From positions 1,513,596 through 1,577,595 of the forward strand of contig OY761144.1 in assembly GCA_963664365.1 (NCBI GenBank): a stretch of DNA of 64,000 nt, given 5' to 3'. Of this stretch, positions 2,795-58,148 are shown one piece after another. Both the position numbers and the translations under genes were made by a program. This DNA comes from Dehalococcoidia bacterium. GTDB taxonomy: Bacteria > Chloroflexota > Dehalococcoidia > Lucifugimonadales > UBA1123. Below the pieces are notes generated by a model. That model ran no database searches. It saw only the letters and a program-made list of their open reading frames with translations, and had not been told where the DNA came from. How positions within the stretch are numbered: the first letter of the stretch is position 1; the number at the start of each line of letters is the position of its first letter.

Positions 2795-2906
2795 GACTTC
2801 CCTCCGTCGCCCGAACTTAAAGAGATTGTACTACGCCCTGAATCCAATGGCTGACAAAAGACATCTTATATCGGTAAACTGTGAACTACAAATCGAGCGA
2901 GGCGCC

Positions 2907-3797
2907 ATGTTCAGACGCATTTCAGTATTCGGGCTTGCCGCCGGTATTGTGGGCCTGTCTGCCTGCGGGACCACTGACCCTGAGGCTCCGTCCCCAGAGC
3001 CTACGTCGCCGCCCGCGCTAGTCCAGGTTGTCCCGACAGCTACTCCGACCGTGCCGCCGCCTACGACACCGCCTGCCACGCCGACCAGCGCGCCCACACC
3101 CACGACACCACCTGCAACTGCTACCGGCGCACCCGCCCCGACAACACCGCCTGCAACTGCCACCGGCGCGCCCGCGCCCACGACACCGCCTGCCACTGCT
3201 ACCGGCGTACCTGCGCCCACGACACCGCCTGCCACGGCGACCGCAGTGCCCGCTCCGACGACACCACCGCCTACGGCGACCACAGCGCCCACTCCGACGA
3301 CGCCACCGCCCACGCCCACGACACCGCCTACGCCAACCGCTGTCGCCGTGAAAATCGGCAGCAATGTGGGCGAGCGTGTCCCTGACTTCGACATGGCCGT
3401 CACCGGCGGCGCGACTGTCACGGCGGTCAGCCTGATAGAGGTCGGTCGTCCGACGTTCCTGTTCTTCCACTCATCCACTTGACCGGTCTGTCGCTCTGAG
3501 TTGCAGAGCCTGAAGGGAATCTACCCCGAGTTCGCCGGCAGCGTCGACTTCTACGCCGTCAACGTCAACCCGATTGATGACCTCGACGACTTCACTGAAC
3601 ACGGCAAGCAGCGAGGATACCCTTGGCCGATGGCCCAGCCCGGCGAAGGGATGCTCAAGAGCTTCGATGTTACGTACCAATCTACAAAGGTGGCCTTCGG
3701 CGCGGACGGCGTAATTGTGTACCGGGCCGGGTTCAATGGAGGAAACGCCGAGGAGTGGCGGGAACTGTTCAGGCAGCTAGCGTCAGGGGCCAGCTAG
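2907..3797 (+). CDS. lipoprotein with Pro/Thr-rich linker and TlpA/ResA-like thioredoxin-fold domain; in-frame UGA (3480-3482) read as candidate selenocysteine (T-U-P-V-C)
   Basis: ATG at 2907 with GAGCGAGG upstream. Signal peptide plus lipobox VGLSAC. ORFs 2703..3482 and 3501..3797 share one frame. The junction FLFFHSST-U-PVCRSELQSLKGIYPEF matches the FWxTWCxPCrxE motif of thiol-disulfide oxidoreductases. Confidence 0.65.
3033..3340 (+). repeat. coding low-complexity tandem repeat (PTTPPATATGAPA-type Pro/Thr/Ala linker, units of about 33 nt)
   Basis: Near-identical units (ccgacaacaccgcctgcaactgccaccggcgc...) are visible in the sequence and the translation. Confidence 0.85.
3480..3510 (+). 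promoter_or_regulatory. UGA plus SECIS-like hairpin (stem 3493-3498/3504-3509, loop AGUUG)
   Basis: GCUCUG-AGUUG-CAGAGC begins 11 nt after the UGA. The apical loop starts 16 nt after the UGA and has G-U at loop positions 2-3. G3490-C3510 can pair across a 2-nt bulge. Confidence 0.5.
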
Positions 3798-48454: not shown

Positions 48455-48531
48455 TGGCAGGAGCGGCAGGATTCGAACCCGCGACCCTCGGTTTTGGAGA
48501 CCGATGCTCTACCAGCCTGAGCTACGCTCCT
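48455..48531 (-). tRNA. trnW: tRNA-Trp (anticodon CCA), 3' CCA encoded
   Basis: Hand-folded cloverleaf. Acceptor AGGAGCG/CGCTCCT, D stem GCTC/GAGC, anticodon stem TCGGT/ACCGA with loop CTCCAAA, T arm GCGGG-TTCGAAT-CCTGC. Confidence 0.95.
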
Positions 48532-49025: not shown

Positions 49026-50636
49026 TTGGCAATTGAGTTGACGAAGAGAGTTTACATACTGCCGACCTTGATCGCGCTCGTCGCGGTCTGGGTTTCCTGC
49101 GGCGGCGGAACGTCTGAGCAGCCGACTCCGACGGCCACGCCGCAGGTGATCGTCCGAGTTCCCGCAACTCCGACGCCGATGTTGGCGCTGGCGCCGATCC
49201 AAACTATGCCTCCGATTGAGACTCCGACGCCTATCCCAACGCCTACCGAAGTGCCGACGCCGGAGCCGACGCCCACTCCGCGCCCCTACGACTCGGCGAC
49301 TGTGATGTACGACCTGACGCCTCCGTTCGCCGCGGGGTCGGCCCAACTGCTGAGCGTTCTCCAAGAGATCCGGGACAACGACGACAAGTCGCTCGTGCCC
49401 GTGCTGGTGGAGATACTGCGCTTCGTGCCGACGCGTGAGCTGCTGGAGGGCACAGGCGAAACTCTCCGCGCCCTGAGCGGGCAATCCATCGAAGATTTCG
49501 CCTGGGACAAGTGGATGGAGTGGCTGGGCCGGAACCTCGCCGACTACCAGCCGCCGTCGGAGTACCCGGCGTGGAAGGCGGAGATGTACGGCAAGCTGCA
49601 TCCTCGGTTCGAGGTCTTCTTGGAGCCGGCGAGCGAGTATTCGAGAATCGACCCGACTGAAATCGTATGGGGCGGCGTCCCGCCCGACGGAATCCCCGAC
49701 CTGGCCAATCCGCAATTCCTCGCGCCGGACGAGGCGGACTACATGCTGCCGGACGACAGGGTATTTGGCGTGGAGGTCAACGGCGACGTCAGGGCGTACC
49801 CGCTGCGCATAGTCAACGCGCACGAGATGGTCAACGACACGGTCGGCGGCGAGCCGATCAGCCTGATGTGGTGAACGCTCTGCGGGACCGGAATCGTGTA
49901 TTCCGCCAAGATAGACGGGGAACCGACCACATTCGGGACGTCCGGCTTCCTCTATCGCTCCAACAAGCTGATGTACGACCGCAAGACGAATTCGCTTTGG
50001 AGTTCGCTCGTCGGCAGGCCGGTGATAGGCGAGTTGGCGCAGCGGGACGACCTGGTCCTCGACTTCTTCCCGGTGTCTCTGACGACGTGGGCGGAGTGGC
50101 TGGCAGAGCATCCGGATACGAGCGTTCTCTCGGACCGGACTCAATACTACCCACCCCAGTTCTACGGGCCGGAGTCCAGCCCGCAGTCGATCTACTTCGC
50201 GTACCGAGAACACCCGGGAACGATGTTCCCGGTGTGGAACCAGGATGACCGCCTGGAGGTCAAGGACGAGGTTTTGGGTGTAATAGTGGACGGCGTAAAG
50301 AAGGCTTATCCCGTGAAGCTGTTCCAAGAAGAGCGGCTGATCAACGACGCGGTCGGCGGCGCCAACATCGTTCTGGTCGCCTCCGGCGCTCTGTCCGACG
50401 GCCGCGTGTTCGATCGCGGCGACGTGACTTTCGAGAGCGTCGATGTCGGCTCAGACGGCGTCATCCAATCGGTGATAGACGCGGACGGCAACTCTTGGCA
50501 AATCGAGGAGGCGGGCCTGACCAACGCCGACAACGACACCGTCCTGCCCAGAATCCCGACGCTGATCTACTTCTGGTTCGGATGGTACGCCTTCCACCCG
50601 GACACTCTGCTGTACGAGGGCGAAAGCGCTCCCTAG
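49026..50636 (+). CDS. DUF3179-family lipoprotein with Pro/Thr linker; in-frame UGA (49872-49874) read as candidate selenocysteine (W-U-T-L-C)
   Basis: ORFs 49026..49874 and 49896..50636 share one frame. The joined sequence is VRAYPLRIVNAHEMVNDTVGGEPISLMW-U-TLCGTGIVYSAKIDGEPTTFGTSGFLYRSNKLMYDRKTNSLWSS. This matches the DUF3179 core as I recall it (..TYCPLCGSG..FGvSGlLy.SN.vMyDr.T.SlWsQ), with UGA at the first Cys. Lipobox VWVSC. The start codon (TTG) is uncertain. Confidence 0.65.
49872..49907 (+). promoter_or_regulatory. UGA plus SECIS-like hairpin (stem 49889-49894/49900-49905, loop CGUGU)
   Basis: CGGAAU-CGUGU-AUUCCG. G49885/G49886 can pair with C49907/C49906 across a 2-nt bulge. The architecture matches the hairpin at 3490-3510, and the loop starts 20 nt after the UGA. 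Confidence 0.5.
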
Positions 50637-51706
50637 TCCGCCGGCGCCGCCACGCGCGAGTCGGCCTGGTCATAGGCCCATTGGAGCAGCGTTTCGGTCT
50701 CGTCCCAGCCTATGCAGGCGTCGGTAATCGAAACGCCGTACTCTAGGGCGGACTTGTCGCCGGTGAGCTTCTGAGAGCCCGGATTTAGGTTGGACTCCAA
50801 CATGCAGCCGATGATGTGGTCGTTGCCGCCGGCCCGCTGGCCGACCACGTCCTTGAACGCGACCTGCTGGCGGCGGTGGTCCTTGTTGGAGTTGCCGTGC
50901 GAGCAGTCCACCAGAAGCTCGGATCGCACCTCCGCCTCGTTGAGCAGCCTGTGGGCCTCCGCGATGGACTCGGCGCCGAAGTTCGGACCCGCGCGACCGC
51001 CTCGCAGCACCAGGTGGCCGTCCGGGTTGCCCTTCGTGTGAATCACGGCGGTCTGGCCATGACTGTCTATGCCGAGAAAGGCATGAGACGACTTGGCGGA
51101 GATCATCGCGTCCACCGCGATCTGCGCGCTGCCGTCGGTGCCGTTCTTGAATCCGACGGGCATAGACAGGCCGCTGGCCATCTGCCTGTGCGTCTGGCTC
51201 TCGGTGGTGCGCGCTCCGATGGTGGACCAGCAGACGAGGTCGGCGAGATACTGAGGCACTATCGGGTCTAGGAACTCGGTGCCGGTATAGACGCCGAGCT
51301 CGGCTATCGAGTGCATGAGCCTGCGCGCCGTCCGCAGCCCCTCGTCTATGTCGAACGTGTCGTCCAGGTTGGGGTCGTAGATGAGGCCCTTCCAACCTAC
51401 GGTCGTCCTCGGCTTCTCGAAGTACACCCGCATCACGATCAGCAGACGGTCCTCGAGGCGGTCGCGGATATCGAGTATCCTTCGCGCGTAGTCAACCGCC
51501 TGCTCCTCGTCATGTATCGAGCAGGGTCCGACGACCATCATCATACGGTCGTCCTCCCGTTGTAATACTCTGCGGATCTGCTCGCGGCCTTCGAGGACCG
51601 TGCGCTCGGCGGCCGGGCTGACCGGAATCTGTCGCGCCAACTCGGCGGGGCTGATAAGTAAGTCTGTGCTAATCACGTTCACGTCCATTGTTGGCGATTG
51701 CTGCAT
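50633..51706 (-). CDS. aroG: 3-deoxy-7-phosphoheptulonate (DAHP) synthase, class I
   Basis: VVGPCSIHDEEQAVDYA, KPRTTVGWKG, CSHGNS. Start set at MQQSPT (ATG 51704-51706), after GGAGAG. The isozyme identity (F/G/H) is not determinable. Confidence 0.9.
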   Translation of the reverse strand: MQQSPTMDVNVISTDLLISPAELARQIPVSPAAERTVLEGREQIRRVLQREDDRMMMVVGPCSIHDEEQAVDYARRILDIRDRLEDRLLIVMRVYFEKPRTTVGWKGLIYDPNLDDTFDIDEGLRTARRLMHSIAELGVYTGTEFLDPIVPQYLADLVCWSTIGARTTESQTHRQMASGLSMPVGFKNGTDGSAQIAVDAMISAKSSHAFLGIDSHGQTAVIHTKGNPDGHLVLRGGRAGPNFGAESIAEAHRLLNEAEVRSELLVDCSHGNSNKDHRRQQVAFKDVVGQRAGGNDHIIGCMLESNLNPGSQKLTGDKSALEYGVSITDACIGWDETETLLQWAYDQADSRVAAPAD

Positions 51707-51745
51707 CCGGCTTCTCTCCTGCGCTGGGTCTTCTGTGTGGGACAA

Positions 51746-51774
51746 TCAAAAACCCCAGTCTCTGCCGACTGGGG
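51746..51774 (-). terminator. intrinsic terminator/attenuator CCCCAGUC-GGCAGA-GACUGGGG-UUUUUGA in the DAHP synthase leader
   Basis: 8-bp GC-rich stem and a U5 tract on the minus strand. No upstream minus-strand gene exists for it to terminate other than the leader ORF. Confidence 0.7.
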
Positions 51775-51817
51775 TTCGCTTTCCTGTTTGCGCGCCTTGC
51801 GCTCCGGGCATAACCTC

Positions 51818-51883
51818 TCAGCCGACAGCTTTGCTATCGGTAAAGTAGAAATACCCGTAGGTGGCGGCGGTTAGGATGATCAT
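51818..51883 (-). CDS. candidate leader peptide MIILTAATYGYFYFTDSKAVG (aromatic-codon run)
   Basis: My own translation. The ATG at 51881-51883 lies a few nt downstream of a TTGACA-18 nt-TAACTT promoter (51894-51923, minus strand). Five of six consecutive codons encode Tyr or Phe. The stop codon is 44 nt before the terminator stem. Confidence 0.55.
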   Translation of the reverse strand: MIILTAATYGYFYFTDSKAVG

Positions 51884-51999
51884 TTCGGCAAATAAGTTAG
51901 CAGGATTGTCGTAGCGGTGTCAATAGCATCGCGGCAAAGTTTGACACACCCCGCTCGTTGTGTTACCAATCCCATATCCACTGAGCGGGGAGTACCGAC

Positions 52000-52974
52000 G
52001 TGCCAAACGCCTGCTGTGCGCCCTCAGGCGGCCATGGTCGCCGTCGCTCGGCCTTCCGGTCGAGCCGAGCGGATTCGCGCGTCCCCATAGTCGGCGCCAA
52101 GAGACGGGACAGCCCTCCCAAGGGAATGGCGCACATCCCCGGCGGCAAGTTCCTAATGGGAACCGAAGACCGCTCCGGTTTTCCGGCGGACGGCGAGGGG
52201 CCTACGCGAGAGGTAGAGGTGTCGCCGTTCTTCATCGACGAGACGGCGGTGACTAACGCTGAATTCGGCAGATTCGTCAGGTCTACCCGATACAGGACGG
52301 AGGCCGAACGCTATGGCTGGTCTTTCGTCTTCCACCTGTTCATCTCCAAGAAGAACAGGCGCGAGGTTACTCAGGCAGTCGCGGAAGCGCCGTGGTGGCG
52401 GAGGGTGGAAGGCGCAAGCTGGCGGCGGCCCAACGGTCCGGGGTCCGGTATCGGGCGGCTGATGGACCATCCCGTCGTTCACGTGTCTTGGAACGACGCG
52501 ATGGCCTACTGCCGCTGGGCGGGCAGGCGGCTTCCCACCGAGGCCGAATGGGAGATGGCGGCTCGCGGCGGACTGGTCGGCATGACCTACCCCTGGGGCA
52601 ACGAACTAACCCCCGACGGCAGGCACATGTGCAATATCTGGCAGGGGGATTTCCCGGACGTCAACACTATGGAAGACGGGTTCGTGGGCACGGCGCCGGC
52701 AAGGCGCTTCGATCCGAACGGCTTCGGACTCTACAACGTCGCCGGGAACGTCTGGGAGTGGCAGGCCGACTGGTTCAGCCCCACGTTCCACCGCGACGGC
52801 CCCCGCGTGAACCCGGTCGGGCCGCCGTCGGGCGCCAGCCGCGTCATCAGGGGCGGGTCGTACCTCTGCCACCATTCGTACTGCAACCGATACCGCGTCG
52901 CCGCTCGCAGCGCGAACACGCCGGACAGTTCGACGGGGAACATGGGGTTCCGGTGCGTTGCGGACTTTGCCTGA
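52000..52974 (+). CDS. formylglycine-generating enzyme (FGE/SUMF1 family)
   Basis: IPGGKFLMGT..., FFIDETAVTNAEF, HPVVHVSWNDAMAYCRWAG, RVIRGGSYLCHHSYCNRYRVAARS. The start could be the GTG at 52000 or the ATG at 52126. Confidence 0.9.
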   Translation: MPNACCAPSGGHGRRRSAFRSSRADSRVPIVGAKRRDSPPKGMAHIPGGKFLMGTEDRSGFPADGEGPTREVEVSPFFIDETAVTNAEFGRFVRSTRYRTEAERYGWSFVFHLFISKKNRREVTQAVAEAPWWRRVEGASWRRPNGPGSGIGRLMDHPVVHVSWNDAMAYCRWAGRRLPTEAEWEMAARGGLVGMTYPWGNELTPDGRHMCNIWQGDFPDVNTMEDGFVGTAPARRFDPNGFGLYNVAGNVWEWQADWFSPTFHRDGPRVNPVGPPSGASRVIRGGSYLCHHSYCNRYRVAARSANTPDSSTGNMGFRCVADFA

Positions 52975-53007
52975 TTATCGTTTCAACACCCTTTCTAGGA
53001 GGAGACC

Positions 53008-54504
53008 ATGCCCGAACGACCGAACGTAGTCGTCATCCTGAGCGACCAGCAGCGCTGGGACACGTTGGCCTGCTACGGCAACGACTGGATACAGACCCCG
53101 CGCCTGAACCGACTCGCCGAAGATAGCGCGGTCTTCGAGGCCGCCTACGTTACGCAGCCGGTGTGCGTTCCGGCGCGCGCCTCGATAATGACCGGACTCT
53201 ATCCCCACTCGGCGGGGCCCGTGGTCAACAAGATGAACCTCGACCCCAGCATCCCGGTCCTGCCTGAGATGATCTCGGACGACTACACCTGCGGATACCT
53301 CGGCAAGTGGCACCTGGGCGACGACGTGATACGTCAGCGCGGCTACCACGAGTGGGTCAGCGCGGAGGACGGACACCGCGCGCAGTACACGCGCCGGGAG
53401 CATCTGCGCGTGATGAGCGACTACTGGCATTATCTGCGGGAGCAGGGCTACGAGCCCAAGACGCAAGCGAGCGGAGCGATGATATTCGACTCTTGGGAAC
53501 GGGCGCTGATGCCCGAGGAGTGCCAGATGGCGTCGTTCCTGGGACGTCGGGCGGCGGACTTCATCCGGCGCAACGCGGACGGGCCGTTCGTTATGTACGT
53601 CAGTACCTTCGAGCCTCACCCTCCGTTCTACGGACCTCTCAACGACCTGTACGATCCGGCCCAAATCCCCACAGGCCCGGCCTTCCTCCGGCGGCCTGAA
53701 GGGCACTCGCTCGTCAACCGCGTCCGCTCCGACTACTACACCAACTGGCTGGGGAGCGACGTTCCTCCGCCGGAGGGGGAGTACGTGACCTCGTCCGGCG
53801 CGGCCGCGCTCGGCAATGACGTCACGACCGAGGACGGCTGGCGCACGCTGCGCGCCCGATACATGGCAAACATAACCCTCGTGGACAGTATGGTCGGGAT
53901 GATCGTGGACGCGCTCGACGAGGCCGGCGTCTCGGACAACACCGCCATCGTATTCTCCAGCGAGCATGGGGACATGGCCGGCGATCACGGGATGCTGGAA
54001 AAGCGGGCTTTCTACGAGGAGGCTTCCCGCGTGCCGTTGCTGATGCGCGTCCCGTGGATTTCGGGGAGCGCCCGCGCGGTCGAGGGCAGCGTCGGTCACA
54101 TCGACCTAATACCGACGCTGCTGGACCTCATGGGCGAGGATTCGCCTGGGCGCCTGCAAGGCAAGAGCCTCGTTCCCGTGCTGAAGGGTGACGCAGACCT
54201 CAGCGACAACGAAGTTTTCATCCAGTGGAACGGCATCAGCCCGGACATGGAAGACCGCGCTCTCGGCTGGCCGCAGATCAACCGGATGCTCAACAACGCT
54301 TGGCGGTCAGTGGTGGTCGATAGGTGGAAGTTGAACCTGTGCGCGGGCGACCAGTGCGAATTGTTCGACCTGCACTCAGACCCGCACGAGATGATCAACC
54401 TGTTCGACGATCCCAAGCAGCGAGACCGCGTCCGAGACATGGCCGCCCGAATACGCTCCTGGCAGGTCCGAACCGGAGACACGGCGCCGCTGCCCAGCGT
54501 ATGA
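53008..54504 (+). CDS. sulfatase (Cys-type)
   Basis: 498 aa. [13 protein letters not shown] and the [11 protein letters not shown] (CxPxR) motif. Confidence 0.9.
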
Positions 54505-57500
54505 CGCGACTTCTTGACATACGGATTCTGACGCGGGCCGCGCTCGGCGCGATACTGGCGCTGTGCCTGCTGTCGGCGGCTTGTGATGATTCCCCGGAGC
54601 CGTCGCCTACGGCCACGCCGGCAGCGGTGGTCGTGGCGGTCCCGACAGCTACGTCCGAGCCGACCAATACGCCTACGCCAACTCCGACTGCCACAGCGAC
54701 GCCTGCGCCGACTCGCACGCCAACTCCTACGCCGACCGTCACGCCAACTCCTACGCCGACTGTCACACCCACTCCTACGCCAACTGTTACGCCTACGTCC
54801 GCGCCGACCGACACACCCACGCCTACGCCGACCATCACGCCTATACCGACGCCGACCATCACGCCAACGTCTGCGCCGACTGTCACGCCTACGCCTGTGC
54901 CGACCGACACACCTACGCCAACGCCGACTATCACGCCTACGCCTGTGCCGACCGATACACCCACGCCGACGCCGACTGTCACGCCTACGCCTACTCCCAC
55001 TTACACCGCGACGCCTACCGCCACTTACACGCCGACGCCTACTCCCACATACACCCCGACGCCTACCCCTACTTACACCCCGACGCCTACTCCCACTCAC
55101 ACCCCGACGCCCGTGCCGCCCCAGCCGGGGGAGTCGCTGTGGAGTTCAGCTATAACCATGGGGTGGAGCAGCAACCCCGTAGTCCGAGACGGAGTGGTGT
55201 ATCTGAGCGATTGGTGGGATGGCATCCTCCGCGCAATCGACTCTGAAACCGGCGCGGACCGGTGGACGTACCAATCCGCCGACCGCATCATACCCGGCGC
55301 CGCCGTTACGGAGAGCATTGTCGTCATCAGTGACACAAGCGGCAGCGTGACTGCTCTCGACTCCTCAACTGGGAAAACGGCGTGGAGCTTAGAAGGTTAT
55401 TCGGCTATCCAAACAGGAGTCTCTACCGACGGACTGCGGGCGTTCTTCGGAACCAGCGGCGGTCAGGTTTATGGTCTTGACCTGAGCGACGGCAGCGTCG
55501 TGTGGGAGATGGAGGTTGGCAGTTCGCCCTGGGCACGCGGAGTCGCCGTTGGGGACGGCATCGTCTATTTCGCTCACTCCGATGAACTGATTCGCGCGCT
55601 TAATGTCGAGACCGGAGAATCGATCTGGGAGTCAGCCTTAGACAGCGTGCCGTCCGGCCCAATGACGGTTCAGCACGGGATGGTCTTTGCCGGCTCTGTG
55701 TCTGGGATGGCCTATGCTTTCGACGCAGCGACCGGCGAGACGGTCTGGAGTTATAAGACGGACGGTTTCATAATGGGGCCTCCCGTCGCCTGGAACGACA
55801 CGGCATTCTTCGGATCCGACGACGGCTTCGTTTACGCGGTCGGACTGGACGACGGCGAATTGAAATGGCGCTTTCGCTCGGGCGGACACGTCCGCTCCAT
55901 GCTCGCCGCCGACGCGGGCGTGGTGTACTTCGGCGCCACGGACGGATTCGCCTACGCCTTGGACGCCGAGACCGGTTCGCTCGCGTGGAAATTCGGCGCC
56001 GGACAAGAAGTGGGCGGCAGAGTCGTCGTGGACGGCGGCATAGTGTACTTCCTGTCCTATACCAGCTACATCCACGCCCTCGTCGCGGGACTTCCCGAGG
56101 ATTTCGATCCGGACGCCCCCACTGTCTGCCCAACCGCCTCCGCCGGTCAACTACTGCTGGTGCTGACCGACAACAACCGCAGGGCCTCGGACACACCGGA
56201 AGCCGGCTCTCTCATCTGGAGTTTGGAGGGGAATCAGAACCTGCGGGAATGGATTCTCTTCGACGGCGACACAACATATCTCTCCGCCGGAGACGGCTCT
56301 CTCTACGCGGTTCACAGCTCCACCGAGCGCACGAAGTGGAGCTACGGCACGAGCGGACCGATTAACGCGGAACCCGCCATTTCGGGCGATCTGCTGGTGT
56401 TCGCCGACGCCGGCGGGTGCGTACACGCGGTGAACAGGGAGTCGGGGGAAGCAGTCTGGCAGACGGCGCTTGGGTCGCCTCCCAAAGGGAATGTCTCCGC
56501 AGACGGGGAGAGGGTGTACATGGCGCTCTCAAACGGAGACGTGCAGGCGCTCTATTTGGAAGACGGTTCCGCCGCATGGAACTTCGCGCCGAAAGGGTGG
56601 CCGCAAGGCGGCGTCACGCTTGCGGATGAGTCGGTGTACTTCGCCACAGACAGCGCGCTCGTTTACGCTCTCGAAGCTCCCACCGGCGATGAGTTATGGC
56701 AGGCGGAGACGCTGTATGGTTCAAGCACTGCGCCAATCATAACCGATGGTCTTGTGATTGCGGGGTCGCCGGACGAGCGCGTTTACGCCTTCGACGCCGA
56801 GACGGGGGCGCTGGCGTGGAACTACTGGGCATTGCAGCCCGTCAGGGCCTCCGTGGTCGAATCGGACGGAGACGTCTTCTTCGCGTCGGACAAGGGCTAC
56901 GCGTACTCGGTTGACGTCTTGACGGGGCGTTTGAACTGGCGGGCGACGACTACCAAAATGGTGTCTTCCGCGTCCGGCGCTACAGGCGGCCAGGAAGAGG
57001 TCTCGCCGGCGGTCGATGGCGGCTTGGCGTACGCCGTGTCGGACCAGGATGAGATTGTGGCGCTGGACGCCGAGAACGGGGCGGAAGTATGGAGGTTCGA
57101 CGCGCGCGCAGCCGTGACCTCGCTCGAAGCTGGTAACGAAAACGTGTATGCCTCTCTGTCCGACGGACGAATAATCGCGCTTGCGGGCGGATTCAGCGAG
57201 GATTACGAGCCTCCCGATCCACCTCTGCCATCCGAAGAGCCTGAGTTCGTCCCGCTCACGCCCCTGGAGATACGGGACGCCATCGAATTCCTAACCGAGG
57301 CGGACGAGAGACAGGTGCGGGTGGAAGCGCAAGTGACCACTACGGAGGGGAAATACTGGACGATCGTTGACCACTCCGACCAAGTCATCGGCGTCTTCGG
57401 CGCCGCATACTACCTCCTGACCGGAAGGAGCTACCAGCAGGACGGCATAGAGGCGCGGTATCCGACAAGGGCGGAAAACCTTGCACGGTACGGCGACAGG

Positions 57501-58148
57501 GCGCCGCACTACGGCGGCTTCTGCTGCGAGCAGACTGAGACGGGGCTCGTCTTCGTAGTGCGCGGCGAGTTCCCGCTCAAGTGGGCAGTCCGCGCTTCGG
57601 CCCACGAGGTCGGCCATGCGCTTCAACGGCTGCTCAACCCGGCGCAGATGCGCGCTGCCGGGCCGCTTGCAGGCGCGTTGTGGGAAGCTCAGGCAGGCTC
57701 ATTCGAAGGGGCCGTATTCCGCACCATAGGTGAGTACGCCGACCTAGAATCGGCGGCATTCCCCAACGATCAGTGGGCGCGGCAAGAGATCGACGCCCTT
57801 CGGCAGCGTATGCAAAACGCGCTCTCCGACGAGCCGCAAGGCCCGCAGGACAGGAGCAGCATCATAATCTGGCACGCGATTCTGCACGACCCGGACCTGG
57901 CCCACCTCAAGGAGGAACTCGACCGCGAGGGACGGCTGTCGGGCGCTTCATATCTCGAGCTGTACTACAAACTCGCCATGATCCCGCCGTCGCAGGTGAC
58001 CCCTTACGTGGAGGCGATTACGCCGGACACGCGCGCTGAGATCTCGAACGATCTGAACTACATCACCTCGATACTCATCAAGCGAATTGGGCGCGGACCT
58101 CATCCTGGATTCATCGCTCTCGTGGAGACGACGCTCCTCCTGCCGTGA
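54501..58148 (+). CDS. large lipoprotein: Pro/Thr linker, many PQQ-like (BamB-type) beta-propeller repeats, and a C-terminal domain with an HEVGH zinc-peptidase-like motif
   Basis: ATG at 54501 overlaps the sulfatase stop codon (ATGA). Lipobox LLSAAC. Repeated motifs of the G.VYA.D..TG...W type. [12 protein letters not shown] lies near residue 1030 of the mature ORF. Confidence 0.75.
54664..55120 (+). repeat. coding Pro/Thr low-complexity repeat ([10 protein letters not shown] / [10 protein letters not shown] units)
   Basis: Visible in the DNA and the translation. It generates long Arg-rich and Gly/Val-rich shadow ORFs on other frames. Confidence 0.9.

Follow-up and report, generated by a model that had tools for sequence, protein, structure and literature searches.

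In a 64,000-nt stretch of contig OY761144.1 from a Dehalococcoidia bacterium (the window; positions below are counted from its first letter), the minus-strand gene aroG encodes a class I 3-deoxy-D-arabino-heptulosonate 7-phosphate (DAHP) synthase. The region just upstream of aroG very probably contains a ribosome-mediated leader-peptide transcription attenuator, which sets DAHP synthase by the supply of charged tRNA-Tyr and tRNA-Phe. A first-pass annotation of this DNA had proposed a ribosome-mediated aromatic attenuator of the classical layout, and that proposal was supported here by an antiterminator and by conservation in related genomes. The features of the element and of the gene that it precedes are as follows.

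51918 to 51923, minus strand: −35 hexamer TTGACA of the leader promoter (direct reading; TTGAC is conserved in relatives).
51894 to 51899, minus strand: −10 hexamer TAACTT, with an 18-nt spacer from the −35 hexamer and 10 nt (AUUUGCCGAA) before the leader ATG (direct reading).
51818 to 51883, minus strand: leader open reading frame (ORF), 21 codons plus UGA, MIILTAATYGYFYFTDSKAVG (direct reading; relatives have aromatic-rich mini-ORFs before the orthologous gene).
51842 to 51859, minus strand: regulatory codons UAC GGG UAU UUC UAC UUU (Tyr-Gly-Tyr-Phe-Tyr-Phe, codons 9-14), the proposed stall site (direct reading).
51805 to 51857, minus strand: hairpin 1:2, an anti-antiterminator or pause hairpin (minimum free energy [MFE] fold, −23.5 kcal/mol).
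51809 to 51828, minus strand: region 2, the 5' strand of the antiterminator, CUGUCGGCUGAGAGGUUAUG (constrained folds).
51762 to 51778, minus strand: region 3, the 3' strand of the antiterminator, CGAACCCCAGUCGGCAG (duplex with region 2).
51748 to 51777, minus strand: intrinsic terminator (3:4) with an 11-bp stem GAACCCCAGUC/GACUGGGGUUU, loop GGCAGA, and U5 (terminator scan, −19.5 kcal/mol).
51715 to 51720, minus strand: Shine-Dalgarno sequence AGGAGA of aroG, not sequestered by the terminator (read from the sequence).
50633 to 51706, minus strand: aroG, class I (AroF/G/H-type) DAHP synthase, 357 aa (Pfam PF00793, E = 6e-84; NCBIfam TIGR00034 [aroFGH], 477 bits), with its ATG at 51706.

The 21-codon ORF was present as the first-pass annotation had described it, running from an AUG at 51883 to a UGA at 51820-51818, and five of the six consecutive codons at 51859-51842 specify Tyr or Phe. 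Leaders of related loci (designated here by L numbers) were also rich in aromatic residues. Among 34 leaders of the family, 221 of the 832 residues (27%) were aromatic, with Tyr occurring 121 times, Phe 81 times, and Trp 19 times. Examples are the leader peptides of L002 (MRELPANRYFGYYFYRTDCEVVG), L004 (MKVTRGGCGYCYYFFTGCLPAGGGLVC), L017 (MIQNYFTYYYYFKKRRANCRV), and L131 (MYYFWFYFYFTTRLPGVR). The aromatic-rich mini-ORFs of the relatives may be taken as homologous or analogous to the window leader.

Also as annotated, a hairpin overlaps the last leader codons. Its core, CCGAUAGC-AAA-GCUGUCGG at 51840-51822, extends to a 20-bp imperfect helix, and the last aromatic codons lie in its 5' arm. The terminator has a perfect, GC-rich 11-bp stem (51777-51750) followed by U5 at 51752-51748. 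Of the terminator-like hairpins in the 64-kb window, only 13 when both strands are counted, it was the most stable. From that low number, intrinsic terminators are apparently used sparingly in the host genome. The hairpin and its U5 had been recognized earlier, but the distance of about 35 nt to the Shine-Dalgarno sequence and ATG of aroG was not correct, since the end of the U-tract is 27 nt before the former and 41 nt before the latter. The leader stop codon lies 40 nt from the terminator and 111 nt from the aroG ATG. The gene upstream of aroG, for an FGE-sulfatase (52000-52974, plus strand), is divergent and, therefore, there is no minus-strand gene for the leader terminator to end, in agreement with the earlier claim. 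The downstream neighbor, a DUF3179 gene (plus strand, end at 50636), is convergent and aroG is, therefore, monocistronic. By its Pfam and NCBIfam profile matches, the regulated gene encodes the enzyme for the entry step of the shikimate pathway.

The first-pass annotation had not found the antiterminator by eye. Modeling of the alternative RNA folds identified one, the pairing of region 2 with region 3, which is mutually exclusive with the terminator. Region 2 spans the leader UGA and overlaps the 3' arm of hairpin 1:2, and region 3 takes in most of the terminator loop and the entire 5' arm. In this structure AACCCCAGUCGGCAG (within 51778-51762) is the partner of CUGUCGGCUGAGAGGUU, which lies across the leader UGA, and is complementary to the segment CUGUCGGCUG-A-G-A-GGUU (within 51828-51809). 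The pairing segments of the switch are GUCGGCUG in region 2 and CAGUCGGC in region 3. The 2:3 antiterminator has 15 bp with two single-A bulges and a predicted duplex energy of −24.7 kcal/mol, next to −19.5 kcal/mol for the 3:4 terminator and −23.5 kcal/mol for the 1:2 hairpin. The 191-nt leader as a whole folded better than all of 200 dinucleotide shuffles (z = −2.97).

The switch was tested on a nascent transcript ending before region 4 (up to the terminator loop), with the ribosome modeled as masked nucleotides. When the ribosomal A site was placed at Tyr9, Tyr11, Phe12, Tyr13, or Phe14, the MFE structure was the 2:3 helix (−30.4 kcal/mol for the shortened transcript) and 10 of the 10 counted nucleotides of the terminator 5' arm were paired upstream. 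With the ribosome at the UGA, region 2 was covered, none of the arm nucleotides were paired upstream, and no antiterminator was formed. Without a ribosome, hairpin 1:2 formed in this transcript and region 3 was not engaged by region 2, and the full-length leader folded into hairpin 1:2 and the terminator.

These structures suggest the following mechanism. Transcription would start a few nucleotides before the leader AUG, giving a leaderless or near-leaderless transcript, and a ribosome would translate the 21-codon leader while RNA polymerase proceeds. When Tyr and Phe are plentiful, the ribosome would reach the UGA and cover region 2 (51828-51809), so that region 3 could pair with region 4, the terminator (51777-51748) would form, and transcription would stop before aroG. 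When Tyr-tRNA or Phe-tRNA is scarce, the ribosome would stall in the YGYFYF run (51859-51842) and mask region 1. Region 2 would then pair with the newly made region 3 and sequester the 5' arm of the terminator, resulting in read-through into aroG. If the leader is not translated, hairpin 1:2 would form, followed by the terminator. Sequence and computation establish the elements, their alternative pairings and geometry, their conservation, and their association with the gene; the transcription start, the translation of the leader, the kinetic competition between these folds, and the physiological response are inferred.

Conservation of the element was examined in the 400 nt upstream of the DAHP synthase orthologue in 80 genomes, of which the closest to the window by DAHP synthase was OY762210.1 (83% amino-acid identity). 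By this enzyme, the window belongs to the Dehalococcoidia (Chloroflexota). The strict search required a mini-ORF of 8-50 codons with at least three aromatic residues in seven, an ungapped terminator hairpin of −8 kcal/mol or lower followed by a T-run, and a distance of at most 120 nt from stop codon to terminator. The window and 16 Chloroflexota genomes were positive (L001-L005, L007-L009, L011-L015, L017, L026, and L045). Relaxed terminator rules added four more: L010, L055, L077 (a Desulfohalobiaceae metagenome-assembled genome), and L078 (a Polyangiaceae metagenome-assembled genome). With the strict and relaxed searches together, the layout of aromatic mini-ORF plus terminator was found in 19 of 21 related Chloroflexota genomes, with three of them requiring the relaxed terminator rules. 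A metagenome scan under the strict rules gave 14 further contigs with the layout. These relatives were no closer than those in the genome set (best 69%) and thus widened the family and did not deepen the alignment of close relatives. The strict search did not find the layout in about 45 loci from Planctomycetota, Verrucomicrobiota, Cyanobacteria, and others. Conservation of the mini-ORF and terminator in relatives had been named as a check on the annotation, and the annotation passed it.

The layout was rare elsewhere. Among 570 control windows of 430 nt, drawn from the two strands of these same loci of Chloroflexota, there was one match at the threshold of at least three aromatic residues in seven and none at four or more. 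By comparison, the layout was present in 17 of the 19 regions upstream of DAHP synthase in the clade. Within the whole 64-kb window, the combination of mini-ORF and terminator occurred once on both strands. In every locus found, the unit directly preceded the DAHP synthase gene and had the same orientation. The neighbors of that gene vary between loci, with an FGE-sulfatase in four and DUF3179 in L001 and L002 alone and, therefore, the element travels with the gene and not with the neighborhood. One relative, L006 (OZ242009.1, about 2880-3000), has the promoter and the end of the 5' untranslated region (UTR) as in L005 and L007 but lacks the leader ORF and terminator. An apparent deletion of about 190 nt (an estimate by eye) lies between TTACCYGGG direct repeats, and the leader ATG is AAG. 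L006 appears to be a natural deletion of the attenuator, which shows that leader and terminator form a discrete and, to judge from this sequence, dispensable module.

The geometry of the switch was conserved as well. In constrained folding of 17 loci, the partner of the terminator arm was at all 17 downstream of the aromatic run, at the stop codon of the leader ORF or inside its 3' end. The 5' strand of the antiterminator lay between the aromatic run and 12 nt past the stop codon in every case, and at each locus an antiterminator was predicted whose pairing was lost with a ribosome at the stop codon. The complementarity of this segment to the terminator arm was better than that of shuffled segments, with a mean z of −1.95 over 30 loci (p ≤ 0.05 in 17), although these loci are phylogenetically related and the z is not a formal probability. 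An alignment, A1, was made of 11 homologous leaders (window, L001-L005, L007-L009, L083, and L087). Its unbiased RNAalifold consensus was hairpin 1:2 plus the terminator. The terminator was paired in 97.5% of cells, with compensatory changes in three pairs. Hairpin 1:2 had 14 pairs changed on both sides compared to 8.1 ± 1.5 in shuffles, of which 0 of 500 reached 14. The antiterminator core GYCGGC:GYCGGC was paired in about 90% of cells. A palindromic CCGG core occurs three times in the leader family: after the aromatic codons (A1 columns 53-58; about 51840-51836 in the window), in region 2 (columns 68-73; about 51825-51820), and at the top of the terminator arm (columns 140-145; about 51768-51763). 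Because of this threefold repeat, region 2 can pair alternately with region 1 or region 3.

The element thus has the following traits of the attenuator class: a cluster of codons for amino acids of the pathway in a short upstream ORF (YGYFYF, codons 9-14); an intrinsic terminator between this ORF and the structural gene (51777-51748); an exclusive antiterminator, the 2:3 duplex, with covariation no greater than its conservation; a geometry in which a stalled ribosome frees the antiterminator and a ribosome at the stop blocks it (masking simulations; 17 of 17 loci); and a 1:2 hairpin over the regulatory codons, seen in the MFE fold of the window and in the A1 consensus and not the MFE structure in 10 of 17 relatives. 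All the defining features that can be tested on sequence were found, and we would place the element among the leader-peptide attenuators, a functional class and not a curated sequence family.

The position of the transcription start was considered next. A TTGACA-18 nt-TAACTT promoter at 51894-51923 had been reported earlier and is present on the minus strand. Its −35 hexamer is perfect, but the −10 hexamer is weak, and the leader promoter was not called by a consensus promoter scan because TAACTT agrees with TATAAT at just three of six positions. The promoter was, therefore, assigned from the perfect −35 hexamer and its conservation. A transcription start downstream of the terminator had been named as a refuting result; as an indirect check on this, the scan gave no promoter-like site between the terminator and aroG. 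In 22 of 30 family members, TTGAC was found 33-42 nt upstream of the leader start codon, and the relatives have a TAnnnT hexamer in the same place as the window −10, 5-10 nt before the leader start, with no Shine-Dalgarno sequence. The earlier description of the leader mRNA as nearly leaderless agrees with this spacing. The start suggested for the window would leave a 5' UTR of about 3-4 nt without a Shine-Dalgarno sequence, and the placement of TTGAC and TAnnnT implies a 5' UTR of probably 0-6 nt throughout the family. A near-leaderless leader transcript, then, is a predicted conserved property of the family.

Several observations weigh against the attenuator. The proposal was built from sequence and computation in an uncultivated Dehalococcoidia host. 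The −10 hexamer matches at 3/6 and the leader has no Shine-Dalgarno sequence, and its translation would depend on leaderless or near-leaderless initiation. Two explicit antiterminator models on A1 gave no covariation above shuffles or above column conservation; the core is too conserved to vary, and the subgroups do not share one register of the outer helix. The untranslated transcript of 10 of 17 relatives already had the antiterminator, and not hairpin 1:2, as its MFE structure; part of the family may reduce to two states, with the ribosome either at the stop or stalled. Finally, when the full-length leader was folded at equilibrium with region 1 masked, the terminator was always kept (−34.4 kcal/mol compared to −30.4 kcal/mol for the antiterminator fold of the shortened transcript) and, therefore, the switch must be kinetic. 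The trp attenuator of E. coli also decides kinetically between terminator and antiterminator. Folding the complete leader at equilibrium was judged to be the wrong test for such a switch and was replaced by the folding of transcripts lacking region 4 described above.

Other explanations of the same features, which together hold only a small part of the probability, were also weighed. The promoter, mini-ORF, and terminator could be an independent gene for a small RNA or a small peptide, with aroG expressed by read-through or from another start. A promoter, a short transcript, and a strong terminator would fit such a gene equally, and in one subgroup the peptide is fairly well conserved over its C-terminal half (FTG...AG.GLV). 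The codons for that half coincide, however, with the RNA pairing segments, including a CCGG core, whereas peptide N-termini and lengths vary widely and the aromatic run is the sole feature common to all 34 peptides and all subgroups. An independent gene would also not account for a unit that stays next to and in line with the DAHP synthase gene while other neighbors change, or for a terminator alternating with a structure that is precisely placed relative to the stop codon. The promoter scan found no promoter-like site between the terminator and aroG from which the gene could be expressed separately. We consider an independent small gene improbable.

Another possible explanation is that the switch is real but is set by a metabolite riboswitch, a T-box, or an RNA-binding protein of the TRAP kind, and that the ORF is incidental. 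Alternative structures alone do not reveal what flips them, and T-box leaders do occur in this class. Searches for known families argue against it. With Rfam 15 at E ≤ 10, no leader family (Phe_leader, Trp_leader, His_leader, Leu_leader, Thr_leader, or the leu/phe leader) and no T-box matched the region 51400-52300, where the sole permissive match was a meaningless snoRNA match inside coding sequence. At the gathering score, nothing was found at the element in the window or in 39 related loci, 20 of them element-bearing, and the window gave one tRNA only. T-box RF00230 had no match at the element in the window or in the element-bearing loci, with the T-boxes of sister loci serving as a positive control. 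Readings of the element as a T-box, a riboswitch, or a known leader were rejected on this basis. Such a sensor would, moreover, provide no reason for an in-frame Tyr/Phe/Trp run and a stop codon at the antiterminator strand, shared by all subgroups, and the leader RNA is poorly conserved outside the pairing segments. A sensor other than the ribosome is about as improbable as an independent gene.

T-box leaders were seen on other genes near DAHP synthase in L021 (1201-1432, minus strand) and L061 (564-784, minus strand), and a TPP riboswitch was seen in L007 (4576-4687, plus strand). This class, therefore, has T-box control alongside leader-peptide attenuation.

Control could also act on translation, on mRNA stability, or through Rho, with the hairpin and U-tract being merely structural or stabilizing. 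Four loci of one Dehalococcoidia subgroup (L025, L030, L036, and L043) have aromatic-rich upstream ORFs, ending ...YGRSYRS or ...YRK, in which no intrinsic terminator was detected, suggesting that other read-outs exist; control in these four may be translational, Rho-dependent, or something else. The scarcity of intrinsic terminators in the window's genome also counts in its favor. Against this explanation, the window terminator is canonical (11 bp, GC-rich, U5) and conserved with compensatory changes. Sequestration of the aroG Shine-Dalgarno sequence is impossible since that sequence is 27 nt downstream of the hairpin and does not overlap it, and the leader stop, at 111 nt from the aroG ATG, is too far away for translational coupling. 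This possibility was given slightly less weight than the previous two. Lastly, chance co-occurrence of an ORF, hairpins, and a U-tract in a 290-nt intergenic region, where short ORFs and hairpins are common in GC-rich DNA and the −10 is weak, was effectively refuted by the comparative data, in addition to the single occurrence in 64 kb and the fold z-score.

The classical (Yanofsky) model for enterobacterial attenuators such as trpL-trpE, pheL-pheA, and pheM-pheST has regulatory codons in segment 1, the pairings 1:2, 2:3, and 3:4, a stop codon at which a terminating ribosome blocks segment 2, and an intrinsic terminator. The window element shares this four-segment logic with trpL and pheL. It differs from them in preceding the entry enzyme of the common pathway and not a terminal-branch operon, in regulatory codons that mix two or three amino acids, and in a leader mRNA that lacks a Shine-Dalgarno sequence and is predicted to be leaderless or almost leaderless. 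Their sequences are not similar to it, and the Rfam models Phe_leader and Trp_leader do not match the present element.

Attenuation of a DAHP synthase gene is not new, contrary to what the first-pass annotation implied, since one documented and one predicted precedent exist. In Corynebacterium glutamicum, the leader peptide encoded by aroR, which precedes aroF, contains Phe-Tyr-Phe, and ribosome stalling at these codons raises transcription under Phe limitation (Neshat et al. 2014, from the accounts in PMC11802643, PMC7356990, and PMC4046766). As that work is summarized in PMC11802643, Phe limitation affected transcription of aroF and Tyr limitation did not. In both systems, a short leader with adjacent Phe/Tyr codons is directly upstream of the DAHP synthase gene. 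There is also precedent in C. glutamicum for translating an attenuator leader without a ribosome-binding site, as the leader peptide of the ilvB attenuator is made in this way according to the citation of Morbach 2000 in PMC4046766, and one third of C. glutamicum mRNAs are leaderless (PMC3890552). The two elements differ in phylum, Actinomycetota for aroR and Chloroflexota here, and in the run, which is longer and Tyr-biased in the window (YGYFYF) and in its family (Tyr 121, Phe 81, Trp 19). Given the phylogenetic distance, an independent origin seems likely, and we claim a functional analogy alone.

The predicted precedent is the Acholeplasma uORFC-13-1 motif, which has a predicted promoter, an upstream ORF with Phe codons, and an intrinsic terminator before aroF and was read as ribosome-mediated attenuation (Brewer et al. 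2021, PMC8632094). It has the same order of promoter, ORF, and terminator before a DAHP synthase gene, but it comes from Mollicutes, has a conventional ribosome-binding site, uses a U run coding for Phe only, and is known computationally from 24 representatives. No relation of this motif to the window RNA could be detected, and no Rfam 15 family matches the element in the window. When Actinobacteria were compared in a 2005 study, Phe/Tyr attenuators were not found (PMC1262725). The repressors TyrR and TrpR control the three genes for DAHP synthase of E. coli (PMC11802643). A literature search on attenuators and leader peptides in Chloroflexota, Dehalococcoidia, and SAR202 returned nothing relevant.

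Some additional features were observed around the element and its relatives. A plus-strand cluster at 52000-58148, divergent from aroG, encodes the FGE-sulfatase-modifying enzyme (52000-52974), a sulfatase (53008-54504), and a PQQ/beta-propeller protein of 1274 aa with multiple repeats (54324-58148). L026 and L055 also have FGE upstream of DAHP synthase, and there were FGE matches in L097 and L113. About 2 kb downstream of aroG, at 48455-48531 on the minus strand, is a gene for tRNA-Trp (CCA). Synteny of this tRNA gene with the attenuator was considered and rejected, as it is absent in L001-L009 and the nearby tRNA in L006 is tRNA-Ala. L014 (about 2880-2960) has four tandem copies of a 15-nt unit, CAGCGAACCCTTGAC, between the terminator and the DAHP synthase start codon. 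In L077 (about 390-690), two terminator hairpins in succession and then one more short ORF lie between an aromatic leader, MANRFSGTWSSYFSFFYFYGGTGLPGVR, and the DAHP synthase gene, and this arrangement may be a tandem attenuator.

The mechanism proposed here is the known, classical trp/phe type. It reveals no new principle and would not surprise a specialist. What appears to be new in this element, itself well supported by the sequence comparisons, is the phylum, an uncurated family, leaders lacking a Shine-Dalgarno sequence, and a predicted mixed sensing of Tyr, Phe, and Trp. More tentatively, aromatic leader-peptide attenuation from essentially leaderless transcripts without a Shine-Dalgarno sequence could be the main and ancient control of shikimate entry in marine and sponge-associated Dehalococcoidia, recurring in Desulfobacterota and Myxococcota. 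One leader would integrate the charging of Tyr, Phe, and sometimes Trp tRNAs, and the thrice-repeated CCGG core would serve the 1:2, 2:3, and 3:4-adjacent pairings. We regard this wider proposal as possible, though somewhat short of probable. If it is true, these leaders would constitute an uncurated RNA regulatory family of several phyla and would offer a natural system for the coupling of RNA polymerase to a ribosome that initiates at a 5'-terminal AUG. The family is absent from Rfam, and its description could improve the annotation of metagenome-assembled genomes. By these predictions, leader-peptide control of DAHP synthase, studied so far in one actinobacterium, would reach at least three more phyla, and Yanofsky-type attenuation would act in this group on near-leaderless transcripts lacking a Shine-Dalgarno sequence. 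The element is clean and experimentally tractable, and it provides a concrete, testable control of aromatic biosynthesis in Dehalococcoidia and SAR202-type Chloroflexota, a large, mostly uncultivated, and ecologically important group whose regulation is almost unknown.

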